DNA of 64,000 bases from an uncultured delta proteobacterium (GTDB lineage: Bacteria > Desulfobacterota > Binatia > UBA9968), in NCBI GenBank assembly GCA_963840855.1, contig CAWJBB010000046.1, forward strand, positions 96,001 through 160,000, given 5' to 3'. The notes beneath the pieces were generated by a model that searched no databases, was not told the DNA's origin, and saw only the letters and a program-made list of their open reading frames with translations. Position 1 is the stretch's first letter; each line of letters opens with the position of its first letter. The position numbers were made by a program, and so were the translations under genes. Positions 3,375-34,159 of the stretch are shown piece after piece.

Positions 3375-3413
3375 GCCCCCGTAGCTCAGGTGGATAGAGC
3401 ACAGGATTCCTAA
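3375..3413 (+). other. Orphan 5' half of tRNA-Arg(CCT) = attL of element 1
   Basis: 39 nt identical to 22688-22726 (GCCCCCGTAGCTCAGG...GGATTCCTAA), ending exactly at the end of the anticodon loop. Confidence 0.93.
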
Positions 3414-3509
3414 GCGTGCTCATCCGTTAAACTGAGTTCACTCCAGTTAATTTCAGCTAAGAAAATCAAGGTTCGAGTTGTGTTGAATGCAGTTGAGTTG
3501 AGTTGTGTT

Positions 3510-3527
3510 TGGCACGGGCGTGGCACA
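3510..3527 (+). repeat. Integrase arm-type repeats (TGGCAC x2) at attL1
   Basis: tggcacg and tggcaca 11 bp apart; same motif as the three repeats at 22620-22648. Confidence 0.65.
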
Positions 3528-3530
3528 ACA

Positions 3531-3872
3531 TCACTTAAACGGGAACACAAATACTTGATCGAACACGAGGCTCGCGTTAATCACACGAAAGCCAACAAAG
3601 TTTCCAGTTTGGCAAGCTGGTGTCAACAGGGCGATTGTAGCCACATCGGTCGTGAACCAAGTGCTGTTGTCCTCCCTAGCAACGAAAACAAACACGCCAG
3701 AAAAAGTTGCACAGGAAGACGCGTGATAGAAGTTAAAGCCAATAACAATCGCCTGTGTAGCGGGCCCCTCACTCGGTTCCCCCTTACCAAGTGTACCGTG
3801 TGGTTCGGAACTTTGAGCCGCCGCAATGCCAAGAGAACCAAGGACTAAAATCACTGCCAATACGATAGGCAT
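3531..3872 (-). CDS. Secreted hypothetical protein
   Basis: 113 aa, signal peptide, AGGAGG SD. Confidence 0.7.
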   Translation of the reverse strand: MPIVLAVILVLGSLGIAAAQSSEPHGTLGKGEPSEGPATQAIVIGFNFYHASSCATFSGVFVFVAREDNSTWFTTDVATIALLTPACQTGNFVGFRVINASLVFDQVFVFPFK

Positions 3873-4110
3873 GTTTGCCTCCTTTGAAAAATATAGTCTT
3901 TTGCCTCTACCATGCCCCGGCAGGGTGTCTGTCTAATATTGAACCAATGCTGAAAAGAATTATTACGAGTCCTGCGCGGGGCAGGCACACCCAGGGAGTA
4001 GGCAAACAAGTGAGAGTGATTTTTTATGGCTGATATTCACGAAACCAACCCGCTCCGCTTTCTAAGTTCAACTAAAGTTAACATCCCGCTTGAAGTCGCG
4101 TCATTATTTC

Positions 4111-4194
4111 ATACAGCACAGGATTTCTTAACCTGTGGCGTCGAAAAATATCAACGAATCTAAGGGCTTTAAAAACGCTGTGCCAAACCGTGCC
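4111..4194 (+). other. Degenerate att-like junction (tRNA-Arg core relic, IHF-like site, inverted arm repeats)
   Basis: atacagcacaggatttcttaacctgtggcg resembles atagagcacaggattcctaatcctggggcc; followed by tatcaacgaatct and ctgtgccaaaccgtgcc. Confidence 0.5.
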
Positions 4195-4514
4195 GACGAT
4201 AAGCCGGGAATCGAATTGAATCAGATCGAGTCAACCGTATCTCTTGAGCCCCGGAAAAAGCACCCATTCGGCAGAAACGCCCCTGGCGAAGTGACTCCAG
4301 GCCCGGCCCGGCATTTAAATATTCGATTTCGTCGTCATATAGCGGTGCCATGACCTCGCAACCAAATTTTTCAAAAAACATCAGCGTGGCAAGGAGCCTT
4401 ATTCATGAAACCCGCTCGCGGCGCACGTCAGAGAGGATCTAAAGACGCTGGGCCTTCCACATCACGTCAAGAGCACGAGTATTGGCGACCTGTTAAACGA
4501 GACCGCCGAGGAAC

Positions 4515-4781
4515 ATGAAGGCGGATAGCGCAAATGGGTTCGGCCAAACAGGATCGTTCGCCAGCGAGCCGTTAACGACTAGTGAGGGGCATTCTGGCAG
4601 GTGTCAGAACCCGTTCTGCAATTCCATCATTGAGCCTTTGCCGGATGGTGAATGGCGTAGGACAGAGCGGCGCTACTGTTGCGACCGTTGCCGAACTGAC
4701 GGCCATGTCTTGAGGCGGGCCAAGGCGATGATTGCCGAAGTTGGAATTGTCAAGTTTAACTCGTTCCTGGAAAAGTTTTAG
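4515..4781 (+). CDS. Small Cys-rich (putative Zn-binding) hypothetical protein
   Basis: CQNPFC and CCDRC motifs; GAGG SD. Confidence 0.5.
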   Translation: MKADSANGFGQTGSFASEPLTTSEGHSGRCQNPFCNSIIEPLPDGEWRRTERRYCCDRCRTDGHVLRRAKAMIAEVGIVKFNSFLEKF

Positions 4782-4887
4782 CGGCGCTTCATTTCTTATG
4801 TTGAAACAGCATTCAGTCTTGAAATCATAGGAAGAAGCAAAATCCAATTGGTGCCGATGTCCGAAAATGTCCCAGTAGGTTACGTCA

Positions 4888-8168: not shown

Positions 8169-8228
8169 AGTGGAGATGTGATGAGTTAGCATGAACAGAG
8201 CAATCCATCATTAATGCGGAGGTGATCT

Positions 8229-8999: not shown

Positions 9000-11696
9000 T
9001 CAGTTGTAGGGGATCATCTTGGATGATGTTCGTGAGTGTTCAATTAGAGACCCGACCTTTTCAACGAGGTCATCGACCGAATATGGTTTGTAAATGCAGT
9101 CCTTCACGCCGGCCTGGAAGAGTTCTGATTTCACTTGCGGCTCTAGATAACCGGTTGTGATGATAATCCTTATCCCCGGGTTTTGCTCCTTCAGCTCATG
9201 AATCACGTCAAAGCCGGTAATTTTGGGCAAGCCGAGATCGAGCACCACGATATCAATCTCTTCTTTATGATGGTGATAAAGATCTATCGCTTCTTCGCCG
9301 TCCATAGCAGTCAGGGTTTGGTAGCCCGCTTTCGACAAGACCTCTCTCAAAAGGCGAACCAGCGCCTCTTCGTCTTCGACCACGAGAACGGTTCCTCGAC
9401 CACTAGCGTATTTTCGACTGGCGCCTTCCCTTTTCACTATCTCATCAACCGACGATTTTCCTTCCGCCCGAAGCACCGGCAAATAGAGCCGAAACGTGGT
9501 GCCGCCTCCAGGCTTACTTTCCACATCGATGAAACCATTATGCTCTTTGACGATGCCGTAGACGATTGCGAGTCCCAGCCCCGTCCCTTCACCGATTCCT
9601 TTAGTAGTGAAGAACGGCTCGAAAATTCGCTCCCGGACTTCTTCTTTCATTCCCATCCCGGTATCGCTGATCACAATTGAGACATACGACTCCGTGCCGG
9701 CTTCGAGGCGGTGCTCCCGCGCTTTGTTTTCGTCGATCCTTTCCGTTCTGACTGTGAGTTTCCCGCCTGCCAGCATGGCGTCGCGCGCATTGACGCAAAT
9801 ATTGAGCAGCGCTTGGCTCAATTGATTTGAATCTGCCATTACCGACGGCAGCCCAGGGTCAAGATCCAATGCGACGTCAATAATTTTGGGAAACGATTGT
9901 TTGATCAGTTCGCTGATCGTCAAAACGAAGTCGTTGGCATCGATGGGAGCTAACTGCGCTTTCGTCCTGCGCGCCACGGTCAAAAGTTGCCGCACCATGG
10001 ACGTGCCGCGTTTGATTTGTTGGTCGATGGTTTTCAAACTTTTGTCAATCTCCTGCTCGGTTAACTGTTCCTCGCCGATGAGCTCAGCGTAACCTTGGAT
10101 AATAGTGAGGATATTGTTGAAATCATGCGCGATGCCGCCGGCCAGCGTCCCGATGCTTTCCATTTTTTGCGCGTGGCGGAGTTGCTCTTCAAGTTTTTTT
10201 TGCTCCTCGAAGGTTCTTAATAGAGCCGCGTTGGCTTGCTTCAAATCGGCCGTGCGCTCCTGAACTCGCCTTTCGAGCTCTTCGTTGGCTTTGACCAAAT
10301 CGCTTTTTGCTTGACGCACGAGTTCGTCCGCATGCTTTCGCTCCATAAACTGGCCGATCTGGCCGCCGATATCGCTGACCATTTGCAGGAAGCGATCGTC
10401 CGGTTCCCTAATCTCGCGGCTGAAGCATTCGATGACCCCAAGGGTCTTGTCTCCCAGTTTGATCGGGAAGCCAAAGGCACTATGTAGCCCCTCTTTGATC
10501 GCTACCGGCGCGCGTCTGAGATTGCTGTCCGTCGCCACATCGGGGATCCAGACCGCCCTGCCGGTGCTCCAAACTCGGCCTGGCAAATCAGTTTCACGAG
10601 TAAACCTGCCTTCTCTAGTGACGGCCTCGAACTGCGATGCTTGTATTGACGGCGGATGCCACACCTCAAAGCAGCGCAATTCACCGCTAGCTCGATCCAT
10701 GCTCCAAACGGCGCCCAGATCACATCCGGACCGTTCGCATAACACCTGGACGATTTTGGCGGCAGCCTCTTTGAGAGCTGGAGATTCTGCCAAGATACGG
10801 CTCACTGCATCTTGAACCTCTAGAAGATGCTCGGCCCGCCGGCCCTCGGAAATGACTGCAGCAAGCACCAACGCCGCAATGGCGATAGTGCCCATAAAGG
10901 ATTGCAGGTGCAGCAGCGATTCATTAGGGCTTGCATGGGCAAACGGACCAACGCCATTTAGCGTCCCGGCCAACGCGATCGCAGAGATGATAAACGCCGA
11001 AGTCACGGCGCCGCGCTGACCGAACCGGAACGCCGCCCACAAAAGCGGCAAGAGCAGTATGTATTCCGAGCTAGAAGGGATGCCTAGTAAAAACACAAGG
11101 TAGGCAAGCAAGATCAGCGATAGCAGCAAACCTGCAGCCTCAACGATCCATTTGGTTTTCAATTGAAAATAAGGCGGTGTCAGCCAAATCAGCAGGATGG
11201 GGGTAACGATCAAATCGCCGACTGCATCGCCCAGCCACCAGGTGAACCAGATGGCTGCGTACTGATTCCAGTGAGCGAAGCCACCCAGGGTCAAGCTGGT
11301 GACGCCGAAGGTCGCGCTAACCGCGGTGCTCAGAATCGGAGCGAGCAGGACGAACTTGAAAATGTTTCTCGCTCGTTCAAAGGCTTTCGTGCCATTGGCG
11401 AAGCGATTGATCGCCCAAGCGCCTAAAAGCGCCTCGAGCGTGTTACCGGCGGCAATGCCAAGTGTGGTTGCCACCGACCCTTGCGTGGTGATGTTCACCA
11501 GAAAGGCGCCGAGAAAAATTCCCGGCCAAAGTTTATATCCCCAGAGGAGCAGTGCCGCCAAAGCTAACCCGGTCGGGGGCCAAACCGCAGAGGCACTCGC
11601 GTGTATATACGCCCATGAAAGCCCGAGCTTGCCGGCGCAGAAATAAACCGCGGCGAGCGCCAAAATCTCTGTCAACGTGCGGAACCCTGATCTCAT
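9000..11696 (-). CDS. Hybrid sensor histidine kinase (MASE1-GAF-HisKA-HATPase-REC)
   Basis: VWPPTG/GNTLEA MASE1 region, [14 protein letters not shown]-box, GTGLGL, C-terminal receiver domain. Confidence 0.93.
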
Positions 11697-20852: not shown

Positions 20853-21206
20853 ATGATCGAGCAAACCCTAAACCCGTTTGACCCGTTCTTCGAGAAGATC
20901 CGGGAAATTGTCCGCGAGGAGTTAAAGGCGGCCGGGAACGGGAACGGACACGGGGGCAATATTACCGAGACAGACAAAAAGGAACTGCAACGCTTGAAGG
21001 CTTTGGCGGCTGGAAAGGCGGCAGTCCAGGCAGGCGCATTGCTTACCGCCGAGCAATTGGCCGCGATGTTACAGGTCGACAAAGCGACGGTGTACGAACG
21101 AGTGAAGAAAAAAGCTATCCCTTTCTATCAGGCCGGGCGCTTTGTGCGATTCAATCTCGATGAAGTTTTAGAGAGTCAACGAAATAAAAACGACAATCCT
21201 TCTTGA
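20853..21206 (+). CDS. Excisionase-family HTH_17 DNA-binding protein
   Basis: IREIVREEL N-terminus; LLTAEQLAAMLQVDKATVYE...IPF...GRFVRF. Confidence 0.85.
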   Translation: MIEQTLNPFDPFFEKIREIVREELKAAGNGNGHGGNITETDKKELQRLKALAAGKAAVQAGALLTAEQLAAMLQVDKATVYERVKKKAIPFYQAGRFVRFNLDEVLESQRNKNDNPS

Positions 21207-21232: not shown

Positions 21233-21238
21233 GGGTTT

Positions 21239-21427
21239 GTGACTGGCAGGGACTTCAAGAAGATGCGGCTTGCGAAAGGCTACAGTCAATCACAGTTAGC
21301 GCGTGAACTGGACGTGCATGTGGTGACGGTTTCAAAGTGGGAGAGGGGAGTTGTACCGATCCCGCGCATGGCCGAGCTGGCGCTTTCGTCCTTAAAGCCC
21401 AGGTCAAAACCAAAGAAGGGGGTTTAG
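21239..21427 (+). CDS. XRE-family HTH transcriptional regulator
   Basis: KKMRLAKGYSQSQLARELDVHVVTVSKWERG. Confidence 0.85.
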   Translation: MTGRDFKKMRLAKGYSQSQLARELDVHVVTVSKWERGVVPIPRMAELALSSLKPRSKPKKGV

Positions 21428-21429
21428 CT

Positions 21430-22619: not shown

Positions 22620-22679
22620 TGGCACAGTTAGGCACAGTTTGACACAGAAGGGGAAAAATATAATTGTAAGTAGCTGATA
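22620..22679 (+). repeat. attR1 arm: three GGCACAG-type repeats plus an IHF site
   Basis: tggcacagtt-aggcacagtt-tgacacag at 10-bp period; 22667-22679 reverse complement TATCAGCTACTTA fits WATCARNNNNTTR. Confidence 0.7.
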
Positions 22680-22687
22680 TTGCTTAT

Positions 22688-22761
22688 GCCCCCGTAGCTC
22701 AGGTGGATAGAGCACAGGATTCCTAATCCTGGGGCCGCGTGTTCGAGTCACGCCGGGGGCA
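22688..22761 (+). tRNA. tRNA-Arg (anticodon CCT)
   Basis: Full cloverleaf: GCCCCCG/CGGGGGC acceptor, D arm, CAGGA-TTCCTAA-TCCTG anticodon arm, GCGTG-TTCGAGT-CACGC T arm; CCA not encoded. Confidence 0.96.
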
Positions 22762-22784
22762 TTTCTAAGTAATCAAATCTCAAG

Positions 22785-22812
22785 GGGAAAGCTGGAAACA
22801 GCTTTCCCTTTT
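22785..22812 (+). terminator. Rho-independent terminator after the tRNA
   Basis: GGGAAAGCTG-GAAA-CAGCTTTCCC-TTTT. Confidence 0.8.
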
Positions 22813-22832
22813 CTTTTGTCCAAGCGTCCAAT

Positions 22833-22850
22833 GTCTCTAAAATGTCTCTA
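22833..22850 (+). repeat. attL2 arm-type repeats (GTCTCTA x2)
   Basis: 11-bp spacing; same heptamer three times at 33984-34011. Confidence 0.7.
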
Positions 22851-22999
22851 TGGCGGCGCCCGGGCGCCCTTAGGCGGCGGTTTTCGTCGTTTATGGTGCT
22901 CCGGTAGCTACGTGTGGCTAAAACTTTGAGCTTGTCTGAGATACTCGCCAAGGACAACGACACGCCGGCCAACCGCAATGGCGCCGCGGATGGTGGACA

Positions 23000-23239
23000 A
23001 TGACAAATATTGAATTCGCTCAAGCATGGACACGCAAGCTTGAAGCGTTGGGAATCGTCCTGAATAACGGCATCGTGCTGACCGGCCCGGCAAGGTTCGT
23101 CGAGCGCCCGCTTCATCCACACCCGAGCCGTGGAAGGAAGAAAATTCACGCTTCTGGCTACGCGAGACTCAAAGCACACCGGTGGAGAAAGTCAGGCATC
23201 CGGATAAAGGTCACGGATGATAACGAAATAGGTTTGTAA
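23000..23239 (+). CDS. Small basic hypothetical protein
   Basis: GRKKIHASGYARLKAHRWRK basic motif. Confidence 0.45.
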   Translation: MTNIEFAQAWTRKLEALGIVLNNGIVLTGPARFVERPLHPHPSRGRKKIHASGYARLKAHRWRKSGIRIKVTDDNEIGL

Positions 23240-23703
23240 CTACCGAGATTGAAAGGAGAAAAAAGGGCCATTTTTCGCGTATGGCTATAACACCATTAAC
23301 CGGGGATTTTCGTTATCATTGAGGGCTCAACTGGCCACCATAGCTTAGTAGGACACAAATGGGCTTCTCCCGGAAGCATCAAAATTGCGGCGATGAATAT
23401 CAGACCGGTAAAGGTACCAGGCCATGAGCCTTTCGAAACGATCAGGGAAAAAATCCAGAATTGACGGCATTTAGGGAAAGATCGCCGAAGCGCCGTCCAG
23501 GTTTCATTTCGTTTATTTCCCTCTTGCCCTTCAAAGCTGTCAATCGAATGTCACCCATTGTCAAGACAAGCACGGCCGTTTAAAATGATTATTTCGGAAC
23601 CATGACCCAAGCAGATGCAAAAGAGGCACTAGAGAGATTTAACCGGGTACAGGGGGCATGAGCAGGAAGAAAATAGGTCCGAAATGGAGGAGAAAGGAAT
23701 CTA

Positions 23704-24765
23704 ATGAAGATATTCTTGGGTTTGGGTTTGGCGGCGGCGGTATTCCTAGCGAGCAGCGCCGGGGCAGCAGAGATTCCTCACAAGTTCAGGATTTTGGATA
23801 TTAAGATACCGGGGCAGGCTTGGCCCCGCGCAGCCCTGGTAGATATTAACAAGTGGGGCAAAGTGCTTGCCCACACGCCAATGTTAAACGGCGACACGGT
23901 GAGCATTTTGAGCGACGGCAAGACATCACACAAGCCTTTCGGCTGTAAGAAAGAAGCGGGCGAGACTCTAAGTTATACCTACGCAACAGCTTTGAATGAT
24001 AAGAACTATTCGGTAGGTAATTGTTATCTCTGGAATCCTACAACGGAAAGCTATCGGACGATTGCATTTCTGGCGACTCCGACAGGCCGGATAGTGGATC
24101 TGACGAGTCTCAATGTCGCGTACCAAGCTTTTAGCTTTTTACAACCACAAGGCATGAGTCCCGGCAGCCAATACATTACGGGGAATTTTTATAACGGCGT
24201 GGACTCATTTCCACATTGCTTCTTGATCGACAGAGTTGCGGGATCTTTTACCGACATCGCTTTTCCATCTCCGATACCGACGGCAGACGTGAATAGCAAC
24301 TGCGTTGGCGTCAATAAATTCGGACAGGTTCTTGGGGAATATGTCGCTAATGACCTAGCGACAAACGAGAGCTTGGAACACGGCTTTTTCCTATGGGACA
24401 AAGGCGTTTTTTCAATTCCATTGCCCTTGAGCCACGATATTGATGGCGGGCCATACACTATCGCTTATGACATAGAAGGGGATACTGACGCCCTTCTAGG
24501 ACTTTACAATGGCAACGACGGCACAGGGTATGCGGTTTTCTTCTTCGATGACGGGGTTAGCTACGGCATCGCCGAGCCCGCTAATTGGGCCGTAAATGAT
24601 CTTGGCGGCATGAGCACTCGGGGAACATTCGTCGGCAATGTCACAATTTTCAAAGGGCTAGATAAATTTTGTATGGAAGTTGTTGGCGACCCGGATTATT
24701 GCGCCATTGAAGAAAGCCACGGGTTTGTCGCCACGCCGGCGCCTATCAAGGTCGCTTCAAAGTGA
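23704..24765 (+). CDS. Secreted repeat protein (HAF-repeat / beta-propeller-like)
   Basis: Signal peptide; recurring xINxxG/GVNKFGQVLG and HGF/HCF blades; strong SD. Confidence 0.65.
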   Translation: MKIFLGLGLAAAVFLASSAGAAEIPHKFRILDIKIPGQAWPRAALVDINKWGKVLAHTPMLNGDTVSILSDGKTSHKPFGCKKEAGETLSYTYATALNDKNYSVGNCYLWNPTTESYRTIAFLATPTGRIVDLTSLNVAYQAFSFLQPQGMSPGSQYITGNFYNGVDSFPHCFLIDRVAGSFTDIAFPSPIPTADVNSNCVGVNKFGQVLGEYVANDLATNESLEHGFFLWDKGVFSIPLPLSHDIDGGPYTIAYDIEGDTDALLGLYNGNDGTGYAVFFFDDGVSYGIAEPANWAVNDLGGMSTRGTFVGNVTIFKGLDKFCMEVVGDPDYCAIEESHGFVATPAPIKVASK

Positions 24766-24902
24766 AGCTGCGAGGCCAGTTCGAGACAATAGGTGAAAAC
24801 GCAATCGAGTTTTTCAACAGGGTTTCAAGGAGTGGCTAATCGTGAGTAAAATCGTTCATATAAGGCGTAAAGCTTGGAACCCGCAAAACCAAAGGAGAAC
24901 CT

Positions 24903-25280
24903 ATGGCAGACGGACCGGGCGGTAGATTCACGAAGGGTCATAAACTTGCCAAAGGCGGGCTAAGGGATCCGCCTGGAGGCAGGCCAACCAAGGCGGAAGT
25001 GGCGCGCCGAGAATCGCTCAAGGAGGTTCTAGAACGTCTACGCGAGGAAGAGGCGAACACGTTAGCGGCCAGATACTACGAGATGGCCAAAGATGATCCG
25101 GCGACCATGCGGCACGCGGTTGACAAGGTTTTGCCCAACGCAAAGCAAGAGATAGGCGTTACCGGCGATGTCAACGTGGGCCTCAACCGCGAATCGATCA
25201 TCGCCTTGATGGCGACCAAGGAAGGGCGCGAGGCTGCATTGGCTATCACTAAGGCGCTGGCGGGGCAATCTAAGCCGTAA
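24903..25280 (+). CDS. Terminase small subunit-like protein
   Basis: GRFTKGHKLAKGGLRDPPGGRPT...KQEIGVTGDV; homologous to 20357-20659; AAGGAG SD. Confidence 0.6.
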   Translation: MADGPGGRFTKGHKLAKGGLRDPPGGRPTKAEVARRESLKEVLERLREEEANTLAARYYEMAKDDPATMRHAVDKVLPNAKQEIGVTGDVNVGLNRESIIALMATKEGREAALAITKALAGQSKP

Positions 25281-25388
25281 TGGAACCCGCCCAACGTTTA
25301 CCATACCGGCAATTATTAAAGCGGCGGCGGCAGAACGGCGAATGCTTCGAGTGCTTTTGCGGCAGTGGGCGGAGCAAGTGAAAAAAGT

Positions 25389-25607
25389 CTACTCTCTTAC
25401 TCGAAGGCAAGCAGTAGTAGAAGTGGTAGTAGCGCAAATCCATACGCGACCAGTCCAGTTGTCCATAACGTAAACCCCCGTATGACCCTCCGGGGTTATG
25501 ACGGCGGCCGTCATTCGATAACGAAAATCCAACGCAATAAGAAAAAGCATAATAATCGCTAAAGCCAAGACGAGCGCCTTCAATCTATCCAAAAGTTTTT
25601 CCTCCAT
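25389..25607 (-). CDS. Small membrane-anchored hypothetical protein
   Basis: N-terminal TM helix; YVMDNWTGRVWIC. Confidence 0.55.
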   Translation of the reverse strand: MEEKLLDRLKALVLALAIIMLFLIALDFRYRMTAAVITPEGHTGVYVMDNWTGRVWICATTTSTTACLRVRE

Positions 25608-25671
25608 GCCATACTCTCTTCAAAACATCTATTATTTGGACGCCCATTTTGTCCATGCTCTAAGCGCCTCT

Positions 25672-25884
25672 TCAATCGCCTTTGTGTCGCCGGTAGAGTG
25701 TTAGCCAGACGAGCCCGCAGATGATCCAGATTGCAAGCACAATGCTGACTTTCTCGACAATCCGGATCACAACGATCCCAGCTCCATACATCCGAACTTC
25801 AAGACCATCGGGCCAACCGACCATCAGAGTGACGATCGAAAGCAATCCGCCTACCCACAAAATTATCAGCTGGCCCCGTTTCAT
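25672..25884 (-). CDS. Small two-TM hypothetical protein
   Basis: Two hydrophobic segments in 70 aa. Confidence 0.5.
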   Translation of the reverse strand: MKRGQLIILWVGGLLSIVTLMVGWPDGLEVRMYGAGIVVIRIVEKVSIVLAIWIICGLVWLTLYRRHKGD

Positions 25885-25995
25885 CTAGAAGGCCGAGATG
25901 ATTTCCACTGTTCCGACGAACAAATGTTTCATTTTGTAATCTTGCCCACTGGGCTGCGTGCGCCTTAACCGATGGCACGCGCGACGGACGGCAGA

Positions 25996-26412
25996 TCAAA
26001 CGTCGTCATCGTGCCTCCATTCATCGTAGAGTCGGGCTCGCTCGTCTCTGGCCTTATCGATGCAGCGCAATACGATAGCGGCGCAAAGCCAGTAAAGTAC
26101 CGCCGCAAGTATACATCCGATGACCCCCGCTTCCTTACCGAATATTATGCCCACGAGGAAGCCGAGCATGAAAACTACAAAAACCCCAACGACGATCTCT
26201 CCCGAGAAGTGTGCGTCCGGTTCGAAGCGATCATCCAGATTGTGATATTTCTCTCTGAGCTTGATCCGCTCTTGCGCGCTGAGGTATCCAAAACGAATAA
26301 GCCGGCGCCGATCAAACTCACCTCTAAGGTGTCGTTGTTCCAGATCCGCCTTTTCTTCTTGCGTTAGTTCAGACCACGGTTTCATATGCCAGAATCTCCC
26401 AAGGGAGATCAT
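25996..26412 (-). CDS. Two-TM hypothetical protein
   Basis: Charged N-terminal domain and a TM hairpin; GGAGG upstream. Confidence 0.6.
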   Translation of the reverse strand: MISLGRFWHMKPWSELTQEEKADLEQRHLRGEFDRRRLIRFGYLSAQERIKLREKYHNLDDRFEPDAHFSGEIVVGVFVVFMLGFLVGIIFGKEAGVIGCILAAVLYWLCAAIVLRCIDKARDERARLYDEWRHDDDV

Positions 26413-26450
26413 TCACGACTGTCTAACACCTCCATGAATAGCCGGGTCGC

Positions 26451-26480
26451 ATTCTCGCGCAGGAAAGCAATCCCCGTCAA
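26451..26480 (-). promoter_or_regulatory. Sigma70-type promoter for divergent cargo (element 2)
   Basis: TTGACG-N18-GAGAAT on the minus strand. Confidence 0.55.
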
Positions 26481-26536
26481 ACGCATTTTTCGTTGCTTTT
26501 CCAGCCCAAATCCTTACATTGGGGAAGTGCATTCCT

Positions 26537-26594
26537 GGGGTCTAGGCTGATCACCGAAACGGCCCGGAGATTCTCACACGCCGGGCCTGGCCTC
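26537..26594 (+). ncRNA. Structured leader RNA (CI/C4-like candidate), element 2
   Basis: GGGGUCUAGG start, CACCGAAA junction, GGCCCGG/CCGGGCC stem, UGGCCUC closing strand; homologous to 15869-15944. Confidence 0.65.
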
Positions 26595-26632
26595 TTTCTC
26601 TGCCAAAGGTGTGAGAGAAACAGTGTGAGAGG

Positions 26633-26896
26633 ATGTCAAAACCTCCAAGCAAAGCGACCAAGCGTCGCACTCGAAAACCGCTCGATGCAAGCGAGTTCTC
26701 AGACCGCCAACTATTGATCCATTGGGGCCGTGTTCTACAGAGCCAGCAACTGTGGCTCGCGCAAATTATTCAAAGCCTCGGCGCACCGCTACTGCCAGGT
26801 ATACCCGAACGGCTCCGCCAGAACCTGTCTCGTGAACACTTGAGAGCTTGGCTGAATGATGGGGTTTCCGCTGAACTTAATCAGTGGGCTGCTTAA
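26633..26896 (+). CDS. Hypothetical protein, first gene of element 2 core operon
   Basis: 87 aa ORF directly after the leader RNA. Confidence 0.5.
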   Translation: MSKPPSKATKRRTRKPLDASEFSDRQLLIHWGRVLQSQQLWLAQIIQSLGAPLLPGIPERLRQNLSREHLRAWLNDGVSAELNQWAA

Positions 26897-27647
26897 GGCA
26901 TCTAACGAAGAAAGTTCAGTCAGGAAAGAGATAGCGGGAAGGCTGACAGGTGCGGTCGTGTCCAGATTGATCGATGTCCGCGGCGAGAAGGTCGGAAGGA
27001 GCGATAGCTTGCCGGATAACCTAAGAGAGATACGGCGGGCCTTCATGGTAGACAGGATTAAGGCAAAGCAATCCATACCTGATGATGAGGATGCCAGGAG
27101 CGATGTGTTTCTCGACGCCTGGACTGAGCTTAATCGACAGGCTGAGTCGATAATAAAAACTTCATGGCCCTTGCCGACAGCAGAAAGCGCCTTTGAAGCT
27201 GACTTATATGAGCGATGGCAAACAGACGTGCTATCGGCCTTGAAAAACCGCTGGATTGCTTTCCTTCCAATCTTGGTGGAACGAGAAGCGGTAAACTACA
27301 TGCCAGCAAGAATCAAGATGGATCAAATCGACAGGGCACGGTCTAAGGCAGCAAAGAAACGGAAAGGCATCGAAGTCGAGTATGATGAGACATTACACGA
27401 GGAGCCTTTGATGCCTGCCGGCGATAATTCAGAAGAAACCAAGCTCTTAGAATCAGAAGGTGTACGAAAACGGCTAAAAAAACTGGATGAGGCGGCAGAT
27501 AGATATGCCCCAGAAACGGGCCGAGCTATTCGATTGATTTTAAGAGAAGGTTATAGCCAAAAAAGAGCAGCCGAAGCTGAAGGCATCCCAGAATCTACCT
27601 TGAGTGAGAGGATCATAAGAGAAGAAATCGAAAAAAGTGACCTCTAA
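26856..27647 (+). CDS. Hypothetical protein with C-terminal HTH (sigma region-4-like); may be fused to the upstream ORF
   Basis: AIRLILREGYSQKRAAEAEGIPESTLSERI. Confidence 0.6.
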   Translation: MMGFPLNLISGLLKASNEESSVRKEIAGRLTGAVVSRLIDVRGEKVGRSDSLPDNLREIRRAFMVDRIKAKQSIPDDEDARSDVFLDAWTELNRQAESIIKTSWPLPTAESAFEADLYERWQTDVLSALKNRWIAFLPILVEREAVNYMPARIKMDQIDRARSKAAKKRKGIEVEYDETLHEEPLMPAGDNSEETKLLESEGVRKRLKKLDEAADRYAPETGRAIRLILREGYSQKRAAEAEGIPESTLSERIIREEIEKSDL

Positions 27648-27760
27648 CCCGTCCCATCAATCTTTTTCTCTGCCTATAAATCCTTCTTAAATCAATCGGT
27701 TATCCTAGCACCGGATTTCCCCTTCTGTTTTTCGAGTATCTATATCAGGAGGAGAAATTC

Positions 27761-27961
27761 ATGCTTGTCATTGAAATCGACCCGGCCGGAGGACAAATCG
27801 CTCAAGTGTTCGTGCGAGCGGCCAGCGTTGAAGCCGAGGATGCCGCGCTTCGCGCTTGGCAGAGCGTTAGGCCACTCGTCGACGCCATCGACCTTAAGTT
27901 GAGGCAAGACAACTCGCCGCGAACTATTACGGCTTCCCGGCCACTGGAGGCCGGGTTGTGA
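27761..27961 (+). CDS. Small hypothetical protein upstream of rep
   Basis: AGGAGG SD; GTGA overlap with rep. Confidence 0.6.
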   Translation: MLVIEIDPAGGQIAQVFVRAASVEAEDAALRAWQSVRPLVDAIDLKLRQDNSPRTITASRPLEAGL

Positions 27962-28737
27962 GCGTAAAAATCATGGCTAAAGTCTGGGCAAGTTCACACC
28001 GCAAGGACGGCGAGCTTCTTGTCATGCTTGCCCTGGCGGACTTTTCAAACGATGCCGGCGAGAGCTGGCCGTCAATCCCGACGCTCGCGCAGAAGGCTCG
28101 ACTAACTGAGCGGCAAACACGACGCGTCTTAAGGAAACTCGAAGAAGCTGGAGAGATCCGCCGAGTAAAGAGCAACGGCGGCCGGAATCGGCGGAATCAC
28201 TACTTCATTACCCTCACTGAAAACCCTGATAATATTACAGGGAAAGAATTACAGGGTAAAAATAACCCTGTTATTGGCGACACTAAACCCCTGACGCCCA
28301 TGTCAGGGGCATTAAACCATCATAGAACCGTCAATAAGAGCGGCGCTAAAGCGCCTTGTGATTCTTCTCCATCCCGAAGGGAAAGAAAGAATACCCGCGG
28401 CGCCAGCATCCCGCCCGAGCTTCAAGCCGCCGTTTCCCGCATCGTCGCCAAAATCAACGAACTGGGTGGCACTCGCTACCATGACGACAGCCCGGACGCT
28501 CTCCACAATTTGATTGCCCGTTTGCGCGATGGCCGGACCGAGGCCGAGTGCCTGGCCGTGGTAGAAGGCCGCCACGCGGCATGGGCGGACAAAAAAGAGA
28601 TGCAAGAGTATTTCCGCCCGAGCACGCTATTTGCCGCGGTGCACTTCGAGGATTATTTGCAGGCCGCGCAGAGACAGAGCAACGGCGCCGCCGAATCCAA
28701 CCCCGAACGGCGAAAGGAACTTTTTATCAATGCCTGA
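27958..28737 (+). CDS. Phage-type replication initiator (wHTH plus conserved phage C-terminal domain)
   Basis: N-terminus nearly collinear with the 17347 rep; C-terminal MQEYFRPSTLF...FEDYL (Phg_2220_C-like). Confidence 0.85.
   Translation: MSVKIMAKVWASSHRKDGELLVMLALADFSNDAGESWPSIPTLAQKARLTERQTRRVLRKLEEAGEIRRVKSNGGRNRRNHYFITLTENPDNITGKELQGKNNPVIGDTKPLTPMSGALNHHRTVNKSGAKAPCDSSPSRRERKNTRGASIPPELQAAVSRIVAKINELGGTRYHDDSPDALHNLIARLRDGRTEAECLAVVEGRHAAWADKKEMQEYFRPSTLFAAVHFEDYLQAAQRQSNGAAESNPERRKELFINA
28221..28309. repeat. Iteron cluster / putative origin inside rep (element 2)
   Basis: ttacaggg x2, palindrome cagggtaaaaataaccctg, inverted repeat cccctgac-N6-gtcagggg. Confidence 0.7.
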
Positions 28738-29602
28738 GAAGACTGCCCTGGAATACGTGGCGATGGCCGATGCCGTGCGCGATTTCGCCAAAGGCATGGA
28801 CGCGCAGACCGAAGACGACTTTTTCCCTACCGGGTTTCGGTCGCATGATTTAGCCCTCGGGCGGCTGCGCCGCGGATCCCTGACTTTTGTTGGCGCCAGG
28901 ACATCGATGGGGAAAACCGCCCTCATGCTCAATATGGCGCTGGCGCAGATGAAAGCGGGCGTACAAGTCTATTTCTTCACGCTCGAGATGCCGCGAAACG
29001 ATATGATTGCCCGCCTTGTGAGTATCGCAACCGGCATTCCCCTTTTGGATATCCTGCAAAATCGTGTTGACGAGAAACAGGTACGCGAGATCGGCGGCGC
29101 CCTACCGATTCTATCGCCGCTTCCTGGGAATTGGACCGAAGAGGGAAACCTAAAACGAATCGGCGAACTGTTCAGCCGGATTGAACCGAAGAGCAGAAGC
29201 ATCGTTTACGTCGACTTCCTGGGGCTTGTGCAAGTATCGGGACTAGACGCAACGCAGCAATACGCTGTGACGACCGAAGCCGGGTTATCGCTGAAGCGCG
29301 CCGCGATGGGGCTTCAGATTCCCGTGGTGGCCGGGGTGCAATTGAATCGCCAAGTCGAAGCCCGAAAAGAAAAGCATCCGCTTTTGTCAGACTTCAGGGA
29401 TAGCGGCCGGCTCGAAGAGATTGGCGATGTCTGCCTTGGGCTCTATCGCCCGGGCTTTTATGACAAGAACGCAGACACGGAGCTTCAGGTTTTTTGCCTG
29501 AAGAACCGTAACGGCCCGCGCGTCAACTATGTTTTGGAATGGTACGGACCATGCGCCAGGGCGACAGAGAAGCACAAACTGTCATGGCCGGAGGTTGCGT
29601 AG
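28730..29602 (+). CDS. DnaB-like helicase, C-terminal domain only
   Basis: PTGF..D, GARTSMGKT, LEM, QLNR, FRDSGRLEE.GD, LKNRNGP. Confidence 0.88.
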   Translation: MPEKTALEYVAMADAVRDFAKGMDAQTEDDFFPTGFRSHDLALGRLRRGSLTFVGARTSMGKTALMLNMALAQMKAGVQVYFFTLEMPRNDMIARLVSIATGIPLLDILQNRVDEKQVREIGGALPILSPLPGNWTEEGNLKRIGELFSRIEPKSRSIVYVDFLGLVQVSGLDATQQYAVTTEAGLSLKRAAMGLQIPVVAGVQLNRQVEARKEKHPLLSDFRDSGRLEEIGDVCLGLYRPGFYDKNADTELQVFCLKNRNGPRVNYVLEWYGPCARATEKHKLSWPEVA

Positions 29603-29606
29603 GTCG

Positions 29607-30359
29607 ATGCAATTCCAGGCGCCATACTCTCTTGTGCCTTTCGGTGAGCTTGCCTTACGCTTTCATCCGGACCACCTAGCCGACTTGCGGGCGTCGGGCT
29701 TGAGCGATGACACGATCCGGGCGGCCGGCGTGTATTCGATTCGCCCGCGCGACATCGCATTGTTTTTCAATTTGCGCCGCGGTGTCCCCTCTGAGATTGA
29801 AAGCGCTCTTTGTTTTCCGTACCAGGGCAGCGACTTCGCCCGACTGAAACTTTTTCCGCCAGTCGGAAAAATGAAATACTCGCAACCGCCAAAGACCGGC
29901 GCGCGTTTATACATGCCGTTTAAAATCGGCGACGGTCCCCTCTACGTTTGCGAAGGCGAGAAAAAAACCCTCGCGGCGTATCAGGCTGGGCTCAACGCAG
30001 GTGGCATCGGCGGCGTCTGGAATTGGCTAAGCGCCGGGCAACCTATCGACGATTTACGGTTGATTGACTGGGACGGGCGCGAAGTAACGCTGATTCCTGA
30101 TTCCGATGTATTCAACCGCCCGGACTTGCTTCGCGCCGTCTACGCCTTAGGGCGCGAGCTGCAATCCCAAAGCGCCCGCGTTTATGTTGCGCAGATCCCA
30201 CAAACCGGCTCGGCAAAAGTCGGGTTTGATGACTACTTAGTTTCGGGCGGCAAGGTTAATACCCTTGAAGTCTTTTCCTTGAGCCACAGCATTTTCAGGC
30301 GGCTTAGTTTTTGGCACAGCGAATGGAAATTCAAGAGAGCGCTAAGAGAGGCGGCATGA
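29607..30359 (+). CDS. DUF3854 / TOPRIM-like primase-related protein
   Basis: Close paralog of 19003-19755 (CEGEKK, PDSD, GFDDY). Confidence 0.8.
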   Translation: MQFQAPYSLVPFGELALRFHPDHLADLRASGLSDDTIRAAGVYSIRPRDIALFFNLRRGVPSEIESALCFPYQGSDFARLKLFPPVGKMKYSQPPKTGARLYMPFKIGDGPLYVCEGEKKTLAAYQAGLNAGGIGGVWNWLSAGQPIDDLRLIDWDGREVTLIPDSDVFNRPDLLRAVYALGRELQSQSARVYVAQIPQTGSAKVGFDDYLVSGGKVNTLEVFSLSHSIFRRLSFWHSEWKFKRALREAA

Positions 30360-30480
30360 TGGCGGCGGGGAATCGTAGAGACACCATAGAGACACAGGTC
30401 AAAAAGGCCAATGAAAACGCGGGCACAAAGCAGGGCGCAATATAAGCAATCCTGGGGCATTCGACGCGGGCGGGCGTGAA

Positions 30481-30771
30481 ATGAGCGAGCAAGCTAACAA
30501 TAGAATGCTTGTGACGTTGACGGTTGACGAACTGCGCGAGGTTATCCGGGCGGAAGTAGCGGCATCGAAAACAGCCGTTAAGCTACTTTATACGACCGAT
30601 GAAGCCGCCGAGCTTTGCAACGTCAAGCCGTCATGGTTGGCATGGGCCGCTAGAAACGGAAAGGTAAACTGCCGGCGCCTGGGACATAACGTGAGATTCG
30701 CCATTGTAGACTTAGAAGAGCTAATCGAGCAATCAAGGGCCGCGGGTGAAGAGGCGGAAAGAAAGTGCTAG
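30481..30771 (+). CDS. Excisionase-family HTH_17 protein
   Basis: LTVDELREVIR; LYTTDEAAELCNV...LGHNVRF. Confidence 0.8.
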   Translation: MSEQANNRMLVTLTVDELREVIRAEVAASKTAVKLLYTTDEAAELCNVKPSWLAWAARNGKVNCRRLGHNVRFAIVDLEELIEQSRAAGEEAERKC

Positions 30772-31098
30772 CACTCAAGGCCGCCAGAGCAGGTGGTCTT
30801 TCCTTGACAACCCCGTAGCAGTTGAGGTAAGCGAGGGCATTATTATAATGCCGACCGATTCTGGTTAGGCAATATCTGTGATCCAGTTTCTTTGAGCCCG
30901 ACCGGCTTCGTGCTAGTCGGGCTTTGTATTTAAGAGGGGATGCCCATGTTTGCCAGAGGCCCTCCGTTTATATAGAGAAAAGATTTTTTATCGTCGGCAT
31001 CTCTAAGAAGAGTCGGTGGGAGTACGATTCATTTACTTCTTTGCGCGAGCGGCTCAGTATGAGGCGCACCCACCATAACGCTTTAAAGGAGGATGCTC

Positions 31099-31980
31099 AT
31101 GGAGACTATAGAAAGTTTGCGTGACCGCTTAGAGGTATTAGAAAATCAGACCCATGCCCTTGCAGACCAGACACGTGCTGCTGAACGACGACTGCATTGT
31201 TGGCGACGGATTGCATATGGCTTGCTGATAGTGGGGCTGGTGAGCTTGCCACTGGCGTCGGGCATCACGGCGCAAGACGAATCGTCCGAGTATAGGGGGA
31301 TGAGGAAACGCCTCGCCGCCCTTGAGTACAAGCTCCAGTATATCAGTGGCGGTCCCAATGAGGTTGTCATCACTGGAGCGAACCTGCGGATCGTGAATGG
31401 CCTCGGCGCCACGCAAACCACCAACGGCTTGGGCAACCTGATCGTGGGCTATAACGAGCCGCGTCGAGTAGGGTTTCCGACCGTGCGCACGGGCTCGCAC
31501 AATGTTGTGGTAGGAGAAGCGCACAACTTCTCCCGCTTCGGAGGGATGGTGGTCGGGTTTCAGAATGAGATTAGCGGCGACTTCTCGTCCGTGAGTGGGG
31601 GGCTGGAGAACACGGCCAGTGGTGACTGGTCGTCGGTTAGCGGGGGACCTCACAACAGCGCCATCGGAACCTATTCGTCTGTCAGCGGAGGGCACGATAA
31701 CACCGCTAGCGGCCCCGGCGCCTCCGTGACTGGGGGGAGGAACAATACCGCCAGTGGCATTGAGGCCGTGGTTAGTGGGGGCCCTTTCAATACGGCCAGT
31801 GGCCACTGGTCGTCGGTTAGCGGGGGGCAGCAGAACACGGCTAGAGGAGAACGGTCCTCCATCAGCGGCGGGGAAGGCAACGAGGCGAGCGGGTTCGTCT
31901 CCTCGGTCAGCGGCGGACTCCAAAGGACCGCTCCCGGGACAAACAACTGGGCGGCTGGCCCCCTCTTCGCCGCGCAGTAA
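31099..31980 (+). CDS. Membrane-anchored protein with 14-aa SSVSGGxxNTASG repeats (beta-solenoid)
   Basis: Coiled coil and TM, GLGNLIVGYNE, about 8 repeats with 42-nt period; AAGGAGG SD. Confidence 0.8.
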   Translation: METIESLRDRLEVLENQTHALADQTRAAERRLHCWRRIAYGLLIVGLVSLPLASGITAQDESSEYRGMRKRLAALEYKLQYISGGPNEVVITGANLRIVNGLGATQTTNGLGNLIVGYNEPRRVGFPTVRTGSHNVVVGEAHNFSRFGGMVVGFQNEISGDFSSVSGGLENTASGDWSSVSGGPHNSAIGTYSSVSGGHDNTASGPGASVTGGRNNTASGIEAVVSGGPFNTASGHWSSVSGGQQNTARGERSSISGGEGNEASGFVSSVSGGLQRTAPGTNNWAAGPLFAAQ

Positions 31981-32224
31981 GGAGTTGGCGCACAAGTGAA
32001 TGGCCACAAGAACTGGGCCGAATATCACGAGGGAGGGGTCGAGCGTCAAGCGGCTCCTCCTTTGCGACTGCAAACAACACGGAGCGTAAGCTTCTTTTCC
32101 CAGTGGCGGGACAAACTGTGTTGACGCACAGCCCGCCCGTTTTTATTTCAGTCTAAGTAAACGGATTCGTTCCTGCCTCACAAAATTTGAGCCCGCCGGT
32201 TCCTAACCTGAATCGGCCTGTTGG

Positions 32225-32570
32225 TATTTCAATGAGGCTGCCGAGCTTTGCCGCGTTAATCCATCACTCCATTACTCCAACTGACATCCTTCATCGCAGT
32301 CCTTCGAGGTGGGTTTTGAAGTCCAGCGGATTTCACCAGGTTTTCTAGTGTCCCTAACTTTGAACGTTGAACCGAACTTTCGCCACTCGAAGTCTTGCTT
32401 CAGGGCGCCGATTCAGGTTCAAGCAACGGGGAAAGTGAAGTCATCATGGTTGGCATGGGCGGCGCGCAGCGGAAAAGTGAACTGCCGGCGCCTTGGGCAT
32501 AACGTAAGGTTCACCCTCGAAGATTTGGAAGCACTAATCGAGCAGTCGAAAACCACCGGCGACAATAAGA
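32225..32570 (+). pseudogene. Interrupted second copy of the excisionase gene
   Basis: YFNEAAELCRV at ~32225, a ~175-bp insert, then VKSSWLAWAARSGKVNCRRLGHNVRF...LIEQS, matching 30481-30771. Confidence 0.7.
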
Positions 32571-32582
32571 GAGAGATAGCGA

Positions 32583-32611
32583 TTGACATTCCACTCTTAA
32601 AATTATACGGT
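32583..32611 (+). promoter_or_regulatory. Sigma70 promoter for xre-int (element 2)
   Basis: TTGACA-N17-TACGGT, 7 nt before ATG 32619. Confidence 0.55.
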
Positions 32612-32618
32612 GAGGATA

Positions 32619-32804
32619 ATGATAGGCAAGCAGCTACGGGATGCAAGGCGCTATCTGAACCTTACACAAGGTGAGCTAGGCCGCCAATTGGGCATCCACT
32701 TAAATACGATTGCGCGCATGGAGCGCGACGAGTTAGCAATAGCGAAAGTCGTCGAGCTTGCCGTCAAATTCCTAACGTCCAAAAAACAAAGGGGGACACG
32801 CTAA
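32619..32804 (+). CDS. XRE-family HTH transcriptional regulator
   Basis: LRDARRYLNLTQGELGRQLGIHLNTIARMER; TAATG overlap with int. Confidence 0.85.
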   Translation: MIGKQLRDARRYLNLTQGELGRQLGIHLNTIARMERDELAIAKVVELAVKFLTSKKQRGTR

Positions 32805-33982
32805 TGGCAATCAATCAAACAGCGGCGGGGAAATGGGTTGTTGACTGGTGGTTTTTCAAGGATGGCAAGCGAAAGCGCAAAGAGAAAACCTTCGGCAAGA
32901 AAAAAGATGCGACGGCGTTTTATGAATCGACGCGGAGCAAGGTTAGAGACAACGAATACACGCCACCGTCGAAGCATACGGTTAAGGAAATGGCGGAATT
33001 GTACCTAGCAGCGACGAAGGCGAAAACCAAAATTCAAACACACGCGCAGTATAAGCGGCATATCGACGGCTACATCGTGCCGGCATTCGGCGAGCGGCGC
33101 ATGACCGAGCTAGGCTTTGAAGAAATAGAAGAGGCGGGGCGCAAATGGGCCAAAGAGAAGAAAATCAATCCGGTATCCGTCAATAAGATTTTCCGCACCC
33201 TGGGCGCCGTCTATAGCTACGCCAAGAAACACGGCGTCAACTACAATCCCATGACGAGAGTGGACCGCCAGCGTGATAACAAAACCCTTGAGGCGATAGA
33301 GGCCGAAGCGATCCGGGGCTTGACGCAGGTTGACGACGACGGGGCCGGCGACGGGCACCTACGCGCCGTGGGGCCGCACGAAGTCTACAGCGCAGAAGAG
33401 GTAAAGAAACTAATCGACGCGAGCGCGCCGGGCCTTGAGCGGGCGCTGCACATGACCGCGGTTATGACCGGCATGAGACACGGTGAGATAAACGGACTGC
33501 AATGGGATAGGGTAGATTTCGAGAAGTCGCGGATTTTTGTTTCACGCAGTTTGACCGAGCTTAAAGGCGGGGCGATCATCGAGCGGCCAAAGAGCCGGGC
33601 GGCATATCGTTATTTGCCCATGACACCCATGCTAGTTTCAGAGTTGAAGCGGTGGAAGTTGCAAAGCCCGGTAAACGAGCTTGACTTGGTTTTCGCCGAT
33701 CCGTTAGGCAGGGCATTGAACCGCAAGGCGAACAATCGGCGCCTGAAGCAGGCGGCCACGCGGGCGAAGGTCAAGGCGTTGTCGATGCACAATCTGAGGC
33801 ACACATACGCGAGTCAGCACTTGATGGCGGGAACGGCGCCAGCCGAGATTTCGCAGCTAATGGGCCATGCCGATGTCGCGATAACTTTGAAGGTTTATTC
33901 ACACTGGACGCAAAGAGACTATGCAGGCTCCGCGGCGGCGCTAGAATCGCGCTACTTCGCAAGCGCAACGGCGGGCGAATGA
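32804..33982 (+). CDS. Tyrosine integrase (intact)
   Basis: TGMRHGE, HNLRHTY, MGH and ITLKVY give the full catalytic set. Confidence 0.95.
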   Translation: MAINQTAAGKWVVDWWFFKDGKRKRKEKTFGKKKDATAFYESTRSKVRDNEYTPPSKHTVKEMAELYLAATKAKTKIQTHAQYKRHIDGYIVPAFGERRMTELGFEEIEEAGRKWAKEKKINPVSVNKIFRTLGAVYSYAKKHGVNYNPMTRVDRQRDNKTLEAIEAEAIRGLTQVDDDGAGDGHLRAVGPHEVYSAEEVKKLIDASAPGLERALHMTAVMTGMRHGEINGLQWDRVDFEKSRIFVSRSLTELKGGAIIERPKSRAAYRYLPMTPMLVSELKRWKLQSPVNELDLVFADPLGRALNRKANNRRLKQAATRAKVKALSMHNLRHTYASQHLMAGTAPAEISQLMGHADVAITLKVYSHWTQRDYAGSAAALESRYFASATAGE

Positions 33983-33983
33983 A

Positions 33984-34067
33984 GTCTCTAAAAGTCTCTA
34001 CGAGGTCTCTATAACCTGCGCAAATGTGGGGTAAGGTAGGATAAAAGAAAAGTGCAAACCCTTGATT
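33984..34067 (+). repeat. attR2 arm: GTCTCTA x3 plus an IHF site
   Basis: Heptamers at 33984, 33994 and 34005; 34055-34067 reverse complement AATCAAGGGTTTG fits the IHF consensus. Confidence 0.7.
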
Positions 34068-34116
34068 TTTCAACACTGGAAACGTACAGAAAAGACTGGA
34101 TAATCGCTCCCGCACA

Positions 34117-34159
34117 ATTCCTAATCCTGGGGCCGTGAGTTCGAATCTCGCCGGGGGCA
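34117..34159 (+). other. Orphan 3' half of tRNA-Arg(CCT) = attR of element 2
   Basis: ATTCCTAATCCTGGGGCCGTGAGTTCGAATCTCGCCGGGGGCA; 4 differences from the intact tRNA, with T-stem pairing preserved. Confidence 0.93.

Follow-up and report, generated by a model that had tools for sequence, protein, structure and literature searches.

Sites that tyrosine integrases use in tRNA genes reportedly fall into several classes, among them insertion at the anticodon loop with restoration of the 3′ part of the gene. Here we describe a window of 64,000 nt, the whole stretch of DNA analyzed, on contig C46 (CAWJBB010000046.1) of G000, a 93-contig, 7.1-Mb assembly of an uncultured delta proteobacterium. A single tRNA-Arg(CCT) gene in this window is very probably occupied from both sides: two sibling integrative elements, designated E1 and E2, appear to have inserted into its anticodon loop by tyrosine-integrase recombination, with opposite halves of the gene rebuilt.

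Small integrative self-replicating elements and phage satellites share a layout of an integrase gene, an excisionase/AlpA gene and primase/helicase-rep genes. E1 and E2 resemble these satellite-type elements in carrying a rep-like gene, a DnaB-like helicase, a DUF3854 protein, an HTH_17 gene and an integrase (Int1 and Int2, respectively). Unlike phage satellites, including phage-inducible chromosomal islands (PICI), they gave no matches to packaging, capsid, capsid-redirecting or mobilization genes, and no conjugation or virion genes were detected either, among the open reading frames (ORFs) tested against Pfam and PHROG.

Islands that restore one or the other half of a tRNA gene have been cataloged in the Islander database (PMC4383910), which counts 2083 islands with anticodon-centered sites and 125 tandem arrays of at least two; a 3′ fragment is recorded for 3760 islands and a 5′ fragment for 159. 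A passage of a review describes 5′-distal recombination as “considerably less frequent,” citing Zhao & Williams 2002. Both 5′-restoring insertion and stacking at one tRNA are already known. An earlier reading of the window from its sequence alone (the sequence-only reading) took restoration of the 5′ half to be the less common arrangement; the Islander counts quoted above agree with this, but in the bacterial family studied here 5′ fragments occur at tRNA-Arg(CCT) about as often as 3′ fragments (17 versus 19 of 90 genomes).

E2 is like other 3′-restoring anticodon-loop islands in having an internal integrase, a displaced 3′ fragment in the same orientation at its far end, an identity block that runs from the loop, and arm repeats at both ends. 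It differs in that Int2 lies at the far end, adjoining and reading toward the displaced fragment, rather than beside the rebuilt tRNA; the convergent layout is also found within the same integrase family (genomes G051 and G049). E1 is like known 5′-restoring elements in that the full gene is preceded by a 5′ fragment that points the same way, and in that the element brought its own 5′ half and upstream DNA along. The pair as a whole recalls the tandem arrays counted in Islander, since two elements of one integrase family have a common crossover site at one tRNA. In such arrays, however, both elements usually lie on the 3′ side and the 3′ part alone is swapped, whereas here they lie on opposite sides and the gene in the middle is wholly element derived. 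We found no account of a tRNA occupied from both sides with the whole gene element derived, nor of a lineage that shows the 5′ type as often as the 3′ type; for the former, supplements lay outside the literature search and an earlier account may exist.

Three pieces of a single tRNA-Arg(CCT) gene

The three pieces, the elements they delimit and the conserved gene to their right, which encodes a haem-oxygenase-like (HDO) protein, are as follows:

3375..3413, + strand, displaced 5′ half of tRNA-Arg(CCT), taken as attL of E1; ends in the loop TTCCTAA (3407-3413), within a 42-nt identity
3414..22687, + strand, element E1, 19.3 kb, restores the 5′ half; bounded by the 5′-half repeat, with backbone genes and integrase inside
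22688..22761, + strand, intact tRNA-Arg(CCT) (ARAGORN), taken as attR of E1 and attL of E2
22762..34117, + strand, element E2, 11.4 kb, restores the 3′ half; bounded by the 3′-half repeat
34118..34159, + strand, displaced native 3′ half of tRNA-Arg(CCT), taken as attR of E2; allele and downstream flank as in the intact tRNA of genome G002
34206..34946, + strand, HDO gene (Pfam), conserved right flank

ARAGORN makes a single tRNA call in the window, the Arg(CCT) gene at 22687-22762. A genome-wide check for a second copy found none among the 39 tRNAs of the 93 contigs; genes for Arg(TCT), Arg(TCG) and Arg(ACG) lie on other contigs of G000. To the left, 3372-3413 is identical to 22685-22726 over 42 nt, comprising three upstream bases and the complete 5′ half through the anticodon loop, and this block terminates exactly after TTCCTAA. 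To the right, 34117-34135 is identical to 22719-22737 over 19 nt, beginning 1 nt ahead of the loop; beyond this block the match extends as far as the tRNA's 3′ end (34159), broken by four differences, at tRNA positions 51, 53, 60 and 63. All three pieces have only the 7-nt loop itself in common (3407-3413, 22720-22726 and 34118-34124). Exact repeats of 39–42 nt within 64 kb rule out a chance origin. The sequence-only reading had already listed the three pieces in this order, all broken at TTCCTAA, as the identity blocks and the ARAGORN call confirm; only the start of its 3′ piece, 34117, shifts by one position, being a shared base before the loop, which starts at 34118.

The T stem reads GTGAG/CTCGC in the outer 3′ piece and GCGTG/CACGC in the central copy. 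Positions 53 and 63 form a compensatory pair and the change at position 51 turns a G-U into a G-C pair, and the outer and central versions give the same cloverleaf fold. The earlier claim that the joined outer pieces make a full cloverleaf with a different but still paired T arm is thereby upheld, and the joined sequence is identical to the intact tRNA of the same-genus genome G002 (an ARAGORN call) and to that of G058.

In G002 the intact tRNA-Arg(CCT) stands directly before the HDO ortholog. Because its allele is that of the joined outer pieces, the displaced 3′ half at 34118-34159 is native and the central 3′ half comes from E2. The HDO gene also follows the tRNA or its 3′ half in the relative G001, in three metagenome contigs (L071, L084 and L092) and in G072, so that the order is kept in a different genus. 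The central T-arm allele, followed by an E2-like left end, recurs in metagenome contigs L088 and L091, which fits an allele that travels with the E2-type element.

According to the mechanism that we propose, both elements would have entered by tyrosine-integrase recombination at the 7-nt loop. The attachment site of E1 would hold an upstream region and a tRNA 5′ half between the integrase-side arm repeats and the crossover, such that insertion would shift the earlier 5′ half leftward by 19.3 kb and give the gene the front of E1. The attachment site of E2 would hold a 3′ half and a terminator just past the crossover; its insertion would move the native 3′ half 11.4 kb to the right, beside the HDO gene, and give the gene the back of E2. 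Rebuilt from both sides, the tRNA would be attR of E1 and attL of E2 at once, with all 74 nt and both flanks consisting of element DNA. The assignment made in the sequence-only reading, in which one element supplied the 5′ half with its upstream region and the other the 3′ half with a terminator-like hairpin, is retained here. The sequence does not tell in which order the two elements inserted. All DNA upstream of the tRNA is that of E1, and the final ∼30 nt of it show conservation across E1-like elements; on these grounds E1 may also supply the promoter from which the gene is transcribed. A housekeeping tRNA gene could thus lose all of its host DNA through piecewise replacement, even the parts that drive and end its transcription, with sequence and fold nearly unchanged.

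Two sibling elements and a broken integrase

The genes and repeats of E1 are listed first, followed by those of E2:

3510..3527, + strand, E1 left-arm repeats TGGCACG (3510) and TGGCACA (3521), 11 bp apart
9000..11696, − strand, E1 cargo, hybrid sensor kinase MASE1-GAF-HisKA-HATPase-REC (Pfam)
17287..18183, + strand, E1 replication-initiator-like gene, HTH_36
18116..19006, + strand, E1 DnaB-like helicase, DnaB_C
19003..19755, + strand, E1 DUF3854 protein
20853..21206, + strand, E1 HTH_17 gene, excisionase/AlpA-type (Pfam E 1.6e-10)
21337..22551, + strand, Int1, tyrosine integrase ORF that stops just ahead of the catalytic Tyr, broken (Pfam PF00589 E 5.8e-23)
22552..22606, + strand, rest of the Int1 C terminus in another frame, by nucleotide alignment to homologs reading ...YAHFLKPKKQD.MSDLERLI.NG and a stop
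22620..22646, + strand, E1 right-arm repeats TGGCACA/AGGCACA/TGACACA at 22620, 22630 and 22640, 10-bp spacing
22782..22811, + strand, terminator-like hairpin, 13 pairs and a T tail, downstream of the tRNA inside E2
22833..22850, + strand, E2 left-arm repeats GTCTCTA, two copies, at 22833 and 22844
27958..28737, + strand, E2 replication-initiator-like gene, HTH_36 and Phg_2220_C
28631..29602, + strand, E2 DnaB-like helicase
29529..30359, + strand, E2 DUF3854 protein
30481..30771, + strand, E2 HTH_17 gene, preceded by an inverted GTCTCTA pair
32309..32674, + strand, E2 excisionase-like gene, weak match (PHROG 1840 excisionase E 9.8e-5)
32804..33982, + strand, Int2, full-length tyrosine integrase with the catalytic Tyr in frame (Pfam PF00589 E 3.5e-24, and an N-terminal SAM-like domain)
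33984..34011, + strand, E2 right-arm repeats GTCTCTA, three copies, at 33984, 33994 and 34005
34055..34067, − strand, exact match to the IHF consensus WATCAANNNNTTR between the E2 arm repeats and the core, not above chance

The two elements have a common backbone order, namely an HTH_36 rep gene (59% identity between E1 and E2), a DnaB_C helicase (35%), a DUF3854 protein (65%), an HTH_17 gene and the integrase. Int1 and Int2 are 29% identical (E 2e-44), and both lie at the right end of their element on the strand of the tRNA. Both score above the Pfam cut-off for PF00589. For each element the full tRNA and an end fragment in the same orientation enclose an integrase, with the 5′ fragment upstream for E1 and the 3′ fragment downstream for E2. 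These sibling backbones, and identity blocks that meet only at TTCCTAA, bear out the suggestion of the sequence-only reading that two related elements use a common 7-bp crossover site. A PHROG search with 10 unassigned ORFs returned one weak excisionase match and left nine without a match.

The arm repeats are specific to each element and present at both of its ends, with 10–11-bp spacing, ∼100 nt from the loop. We rejected a sigma-54 reading of the TGGCAC repeats, as they recur at this spacing on both ends of E1, like arm-type sites. GTCTCTA occurs 14 times in the window, with seven of the copies in three clusters, the third of which is an inverted pair (30376/30387). This pair (30376-30393, − strand) lies ∼90 nt upstream of the E2 HTH_17 gene and may be an integrase-binding or regulatory site within E2. 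Each element had been credited with arm repeats of its own and an IHF-type site. The repeats hold for both, but the IHF site does not: the E1 arms contain no exact match to WATCAANNNNTTR, and the match in the right arm of E2, the only att arm with one, is not above chance, as the window has three matches against 1.57 expected and at least three are seen in 20 of 100 shuffles.

Both integrase translations contain the motifs TGxR..E, H.LRHTYAS and GHADV, which we take to hold the catalytic Arg, His-x-x-Arg and His residues. The catalytic Tyr near the C terminus is in frame in Int2 but not in Int1. The Int1 translation ends in ...ITMRIS and a stop, where Int2 has ...ITLKVYSHW and homologs have ...TMRVYAHFLK.KKQD.MSDLERLI.NG before their stop. 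Nucleotide alignment with the homologs L089, L083, L048 and L058 shows that 10 nt are missing from Int1, which puts its catalytic Tyr and C terminus out of frame. No second Int1-like gene is present in G000 at E ≤ 1e-30, and the arm repeats of the element that encodes Int2 differ from those of E1. If the 10-nt gap is not a product of faulty assembly, E1 has thus probably lost the ability to excise and is probably fixed in place, which goes against the earlier proposal that either element can excise. E2, given its intact integrase and excisionase-like genes, looks able to move, and may have remained mobile.

The break in Int1 has parallels. Many Int1-like genes in relatives are C-terminal fragments or carry stops, and 5′-restoring copies in the family are often reduced to an integrase C-terminal fragment, arm repeats and a 5′ half; E1-type elements seem to decay in place, with the right end persisting.

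Besides the sensor kinase, the cargo of E1 includes a NosD-like gene, a YecR lipoprotein and an ORF with a DNA-ligase domain. The last of these (5259-5882, − strand) is 63% identical to an ORF (L062, 9932-10324) inside an E2-like element of G072, which indicates that cargo passes between the two element types.

Recurrence in relatives and competing explanations

The arrangement is not confined to G000. The 74-nt tRNA was used as query in a census of 90 family genomes, G000 included, of which only some rows were inspected; one row reaches the end of its contig, and the census may have missed 3′ halves that had diverged. Without the unpublished genomes G067 and G015, the counts for genomes with 5′-only and 3′-only fragments given above become 16 and 18, respectively. 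Both kinds of fragment occur in five of the 90 genomes, and in three of the 90 (G000, G072 and G074) they lie on one contig around an intact tRNA. Inspection of G072 and G074 confirmed the three-piece order on a single contig. In G072 an E1-like remnant of 2.5 kb separates a 5′ half from the tRNA, and an E2-like element of 12.7 kb, with an integrase 56% identical to Int2, separates the tRNA from a 3′ half, after which comes the HDO gene. A 5′ fragment is present in all five further genomes that were inspected for having an Int1-like gene adjoining the tRNA; a search of genome contigs with Int1 alone found one relative. The left arm of E1 is homologous to the DNA that follows displaced 5′ halves in G045, G074, G075 and G072, and the left end of E2 to the DNA after the tRNA in nine metagenome contigs and G072. 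The elements also occur singly: L071, L084 and L092 each contain an E1-like element by itself, the tRNA being followed directly by the HDO gene, and G018 contains an E2-like element by itself.

A scan of metagenomes for the E1 right-end signature with the 5′ half yielded 32 contigs, in 29 of which the 3′ half comes next. Among the 23 with at least 60 nt of downstream sequence in view, nine (four of them near-identical to one another) continue into an E2-like left end, three directly into the HDO gene and 11 into other DNA. A two-sided arrangement is to be expected from known integrase biology, yet it is surprisingly frequent in this soil bacterial family. In three contigs (L066, L085 and L093) an E1-type right end and 5′ half are followed by non-tRNA DNA in place of the 3′ half; these could represent an attP-like form, a stacked array or a disrupted gene.

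The genome G003 shows a further variant (L028, G003:C12, 7749-8444), in which ∼150 bp of an E1-like right end, consisting of an integrase C-terminal remnant, TGGCAC repeats and a 5′ half, precede the tRNA. About 620 bp away is the HDO cluster, on the other strand, and an integrase fragment follows the tRNA on the minus strand. This layout suggests an inversion or deletion at a hot spot.

Two explanations that would do away with a pair of insertions are both very improbable. A single composite element of 30.7 kb, carrying its own complete tRNA-Arg(CCT), could have split the host gene with neither junction restored, so that the internal copy does the work. Formally, the outer pieces do read as one gene cut cleanly at the loop, with a complete tRNA in the interval between them. 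Yet the attP of such an element would have to pair three GTCTCTA repeats with two TGGCAC repeats, when in fact each half-interval has matching repeats at both of its ends; the interval holds two integrases and two full backbones; and the two element types occur singly in the contigs and genome named above. We give equally little credence to the idea that the three-piece order is an artifact of assembly or binning, although G000 is a metagenome-assembled genome in 93 contigs with 8.27% estimated contamination and no reads have been placed on the junctions. The repeats are only 19–42 nt long, below read length, and mis-joins are therefore not expected; chromosomal genes flank both sides on a contig of 177,676 bases; and the same order was found independently in G072 and G074, as was the junction of E1 right end, tRNA and E2 left end in the nine metagenome contigs.

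A third explanation keeps the two insertions and questions only the displaced 5′ half at 3375-3413, which would not be the host's original piece in its original place. It would either have been left by an older, since erased 5′-restoring element, or have acquired new upstream DNA through a rearrangement that brought in a secreted-protein/amidohydrolase/tctC block. This is a serious possibility, to which we assign somewhat less than an even chance. The gene that now forms the left flank is

2209..3264, + strand, tctC-family gene (Pfam TctC E 2.3e-11), not the ancestral neighbor of the tRNA

and its ortholog sits in a different context in all three relatives that have one (G002, G003 and G021), as do the amidohydrolase-tctC orthologs of the same three genomes. 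In G002, a divergent tRNA-Lys/tRNA-Glu pair lies 202 bp upstream of tRNA-Arg; in G000 the pair is at C46:94139-94296, with the displaced 5′ half 5 kb to its right, and the homology to G002 breaks off 74 bp before the expected tRNA start. A sequence motif native to the upstream region in the family, GATGGTAACAAAT, is found 55–58 nt before tRNAs that have not been 5′-rebuilt (G051 and G049), upstream of the G002 tRNA with two mismatches, and 58–63 nt upstream of the displaced 5′ halves in G072 and G075, as 5′-restoring insertion predicts. It is absent ahead of the displaced 5′ half in our window, the 110 nt upstream of which match nothing among the compared loci, and stacked elements on the 5′ side are known from G074. 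Against this explanation, the 110 nt contain no integrase remnant or arm repeat, and the same-genus genome G004 also lacks GATGGTAACAAAT within three mismatches; the 5′ halves, being identical everywhere, carry no allele information. The sequence-only reading had the host's original gene lying split 30.7 kb apart. Comparison with G002 supports this for the 3′ half, but it is not established for the 5′ half beside tctC, and the empty site that was expected from it, tctC-tRNA-HDO, was not found in the genomes searched.

The ∼5 kb between the tRNA pair and the 5′ half (C46:94139-99374, reaching window positions 1-3374) comprises the secreted-protein gene, the amidohydrolase gene and tctC. Farther left, outside the window, 18.5 kb beside tRNA-Glu (C46:75571-94139) are missing from the syntenic region of G002; no tRNA fragment and no integrase that would mark a second island were found in this stretch.

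Several observations count against two insertions into one native gene as set out above. To the absence of GATGGTAACAAAT and the fragmentation and contamination of the assembly must be added that the left flank, as judged by these comparisons, is not ancestral, so that the displaced 5′ half may not be the original host piece. A consensus scan found no sigma-70-like promoter upstream of either 5′ half. A pattern for the attP form of E1 matched 0 metagenome contigs and 0 viral contigs, and neither an excised or circular form nor an empty attB was seen for the source strain. No public sequencing run containing the locus was found, the best sharing 0.09 of sampled words; four of the runs yielded only short contigs from other organisms, with no junction that could be used. 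Lastly, a damaged copy with a T arm of the central type lies beside HDO in G001, the closest relative, with 95% identity in the HDO region, and the allele at the HDO-side position is therefore not stable within the genus. This tRNA-like remnant (L016, G001:C487, 150-215) starts with GCCCCCG, lacks a D arm and has one stem-breaking change in its central-type T arm; it looks like a decayed copy. For inference of “host” tRNA alleles this is a caution, since within one genus the T-arm allele changes with the last element in place.

Four integrase layouts at one crossover site

The integrases of the family stand in four different positions relative to the tRNA. In layout A, the integrase, arm repeats, and 5′ half and tRNA follow one another on one strand (Int1; L036/L039, L038, L042, L043, L048, L051 and L058). 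Layout B has the integrase adjoining a displaced 3′ half (Int2, G018), layout C has it convergent on an intact tRNA (G051 and G049), and in layout D it adjoins a displaced 5′ half on the other strand (G081). A tree of 10 integrase rows, restricted to intact ORFs among Int1-like matches at E ≤ 1e-30, places layouts A and C together in one clade and B and D in another. Broken genes (L036/L039, L040, L042, L048, L052, L053 and L058), partial ones (L050 and L054) and L047, from the unpublished genome G046, were left out of the tree. Its grouping of layouts is a lead rather than a result. In this small sample, the mixing of layouts may reflect flips of target orientation, which the symmetric anticodon stem would allow.

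Taken jointly, these observations can be read as one integrase family having taken up all four attP layouts, with a 5′ or a 3′ tRNA half on either the integrase-near or the integrase-far arm, at the same 7-nt overlap, with flips between close relatives. The gene would then routinely be an element-borne mosaic occupied from both sides, and decayed 5′-restoring elements would have become its permanent upstream region and front half. We offer this wider reading tentatively, as having a chance only just short of even. The family provides natural pairs of related integrases that use the same overlap in either target orientation and could be useful for studying how the direction of integration is determined. 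Island-finding software should score a tRNA that has a 5′ fragment on its left and a 3′ fragment on its right as the site of two elements and not of one large one.

At the G074 locus (L059, G074:C9), the reverse complement of an E2-type arm repeat, TGGAGACATTTTGGAGACAT, lies ∼50–70 nt before the displaced 5′ half, a hint that the 5′ side may carry an additional, stacked element of layout D.

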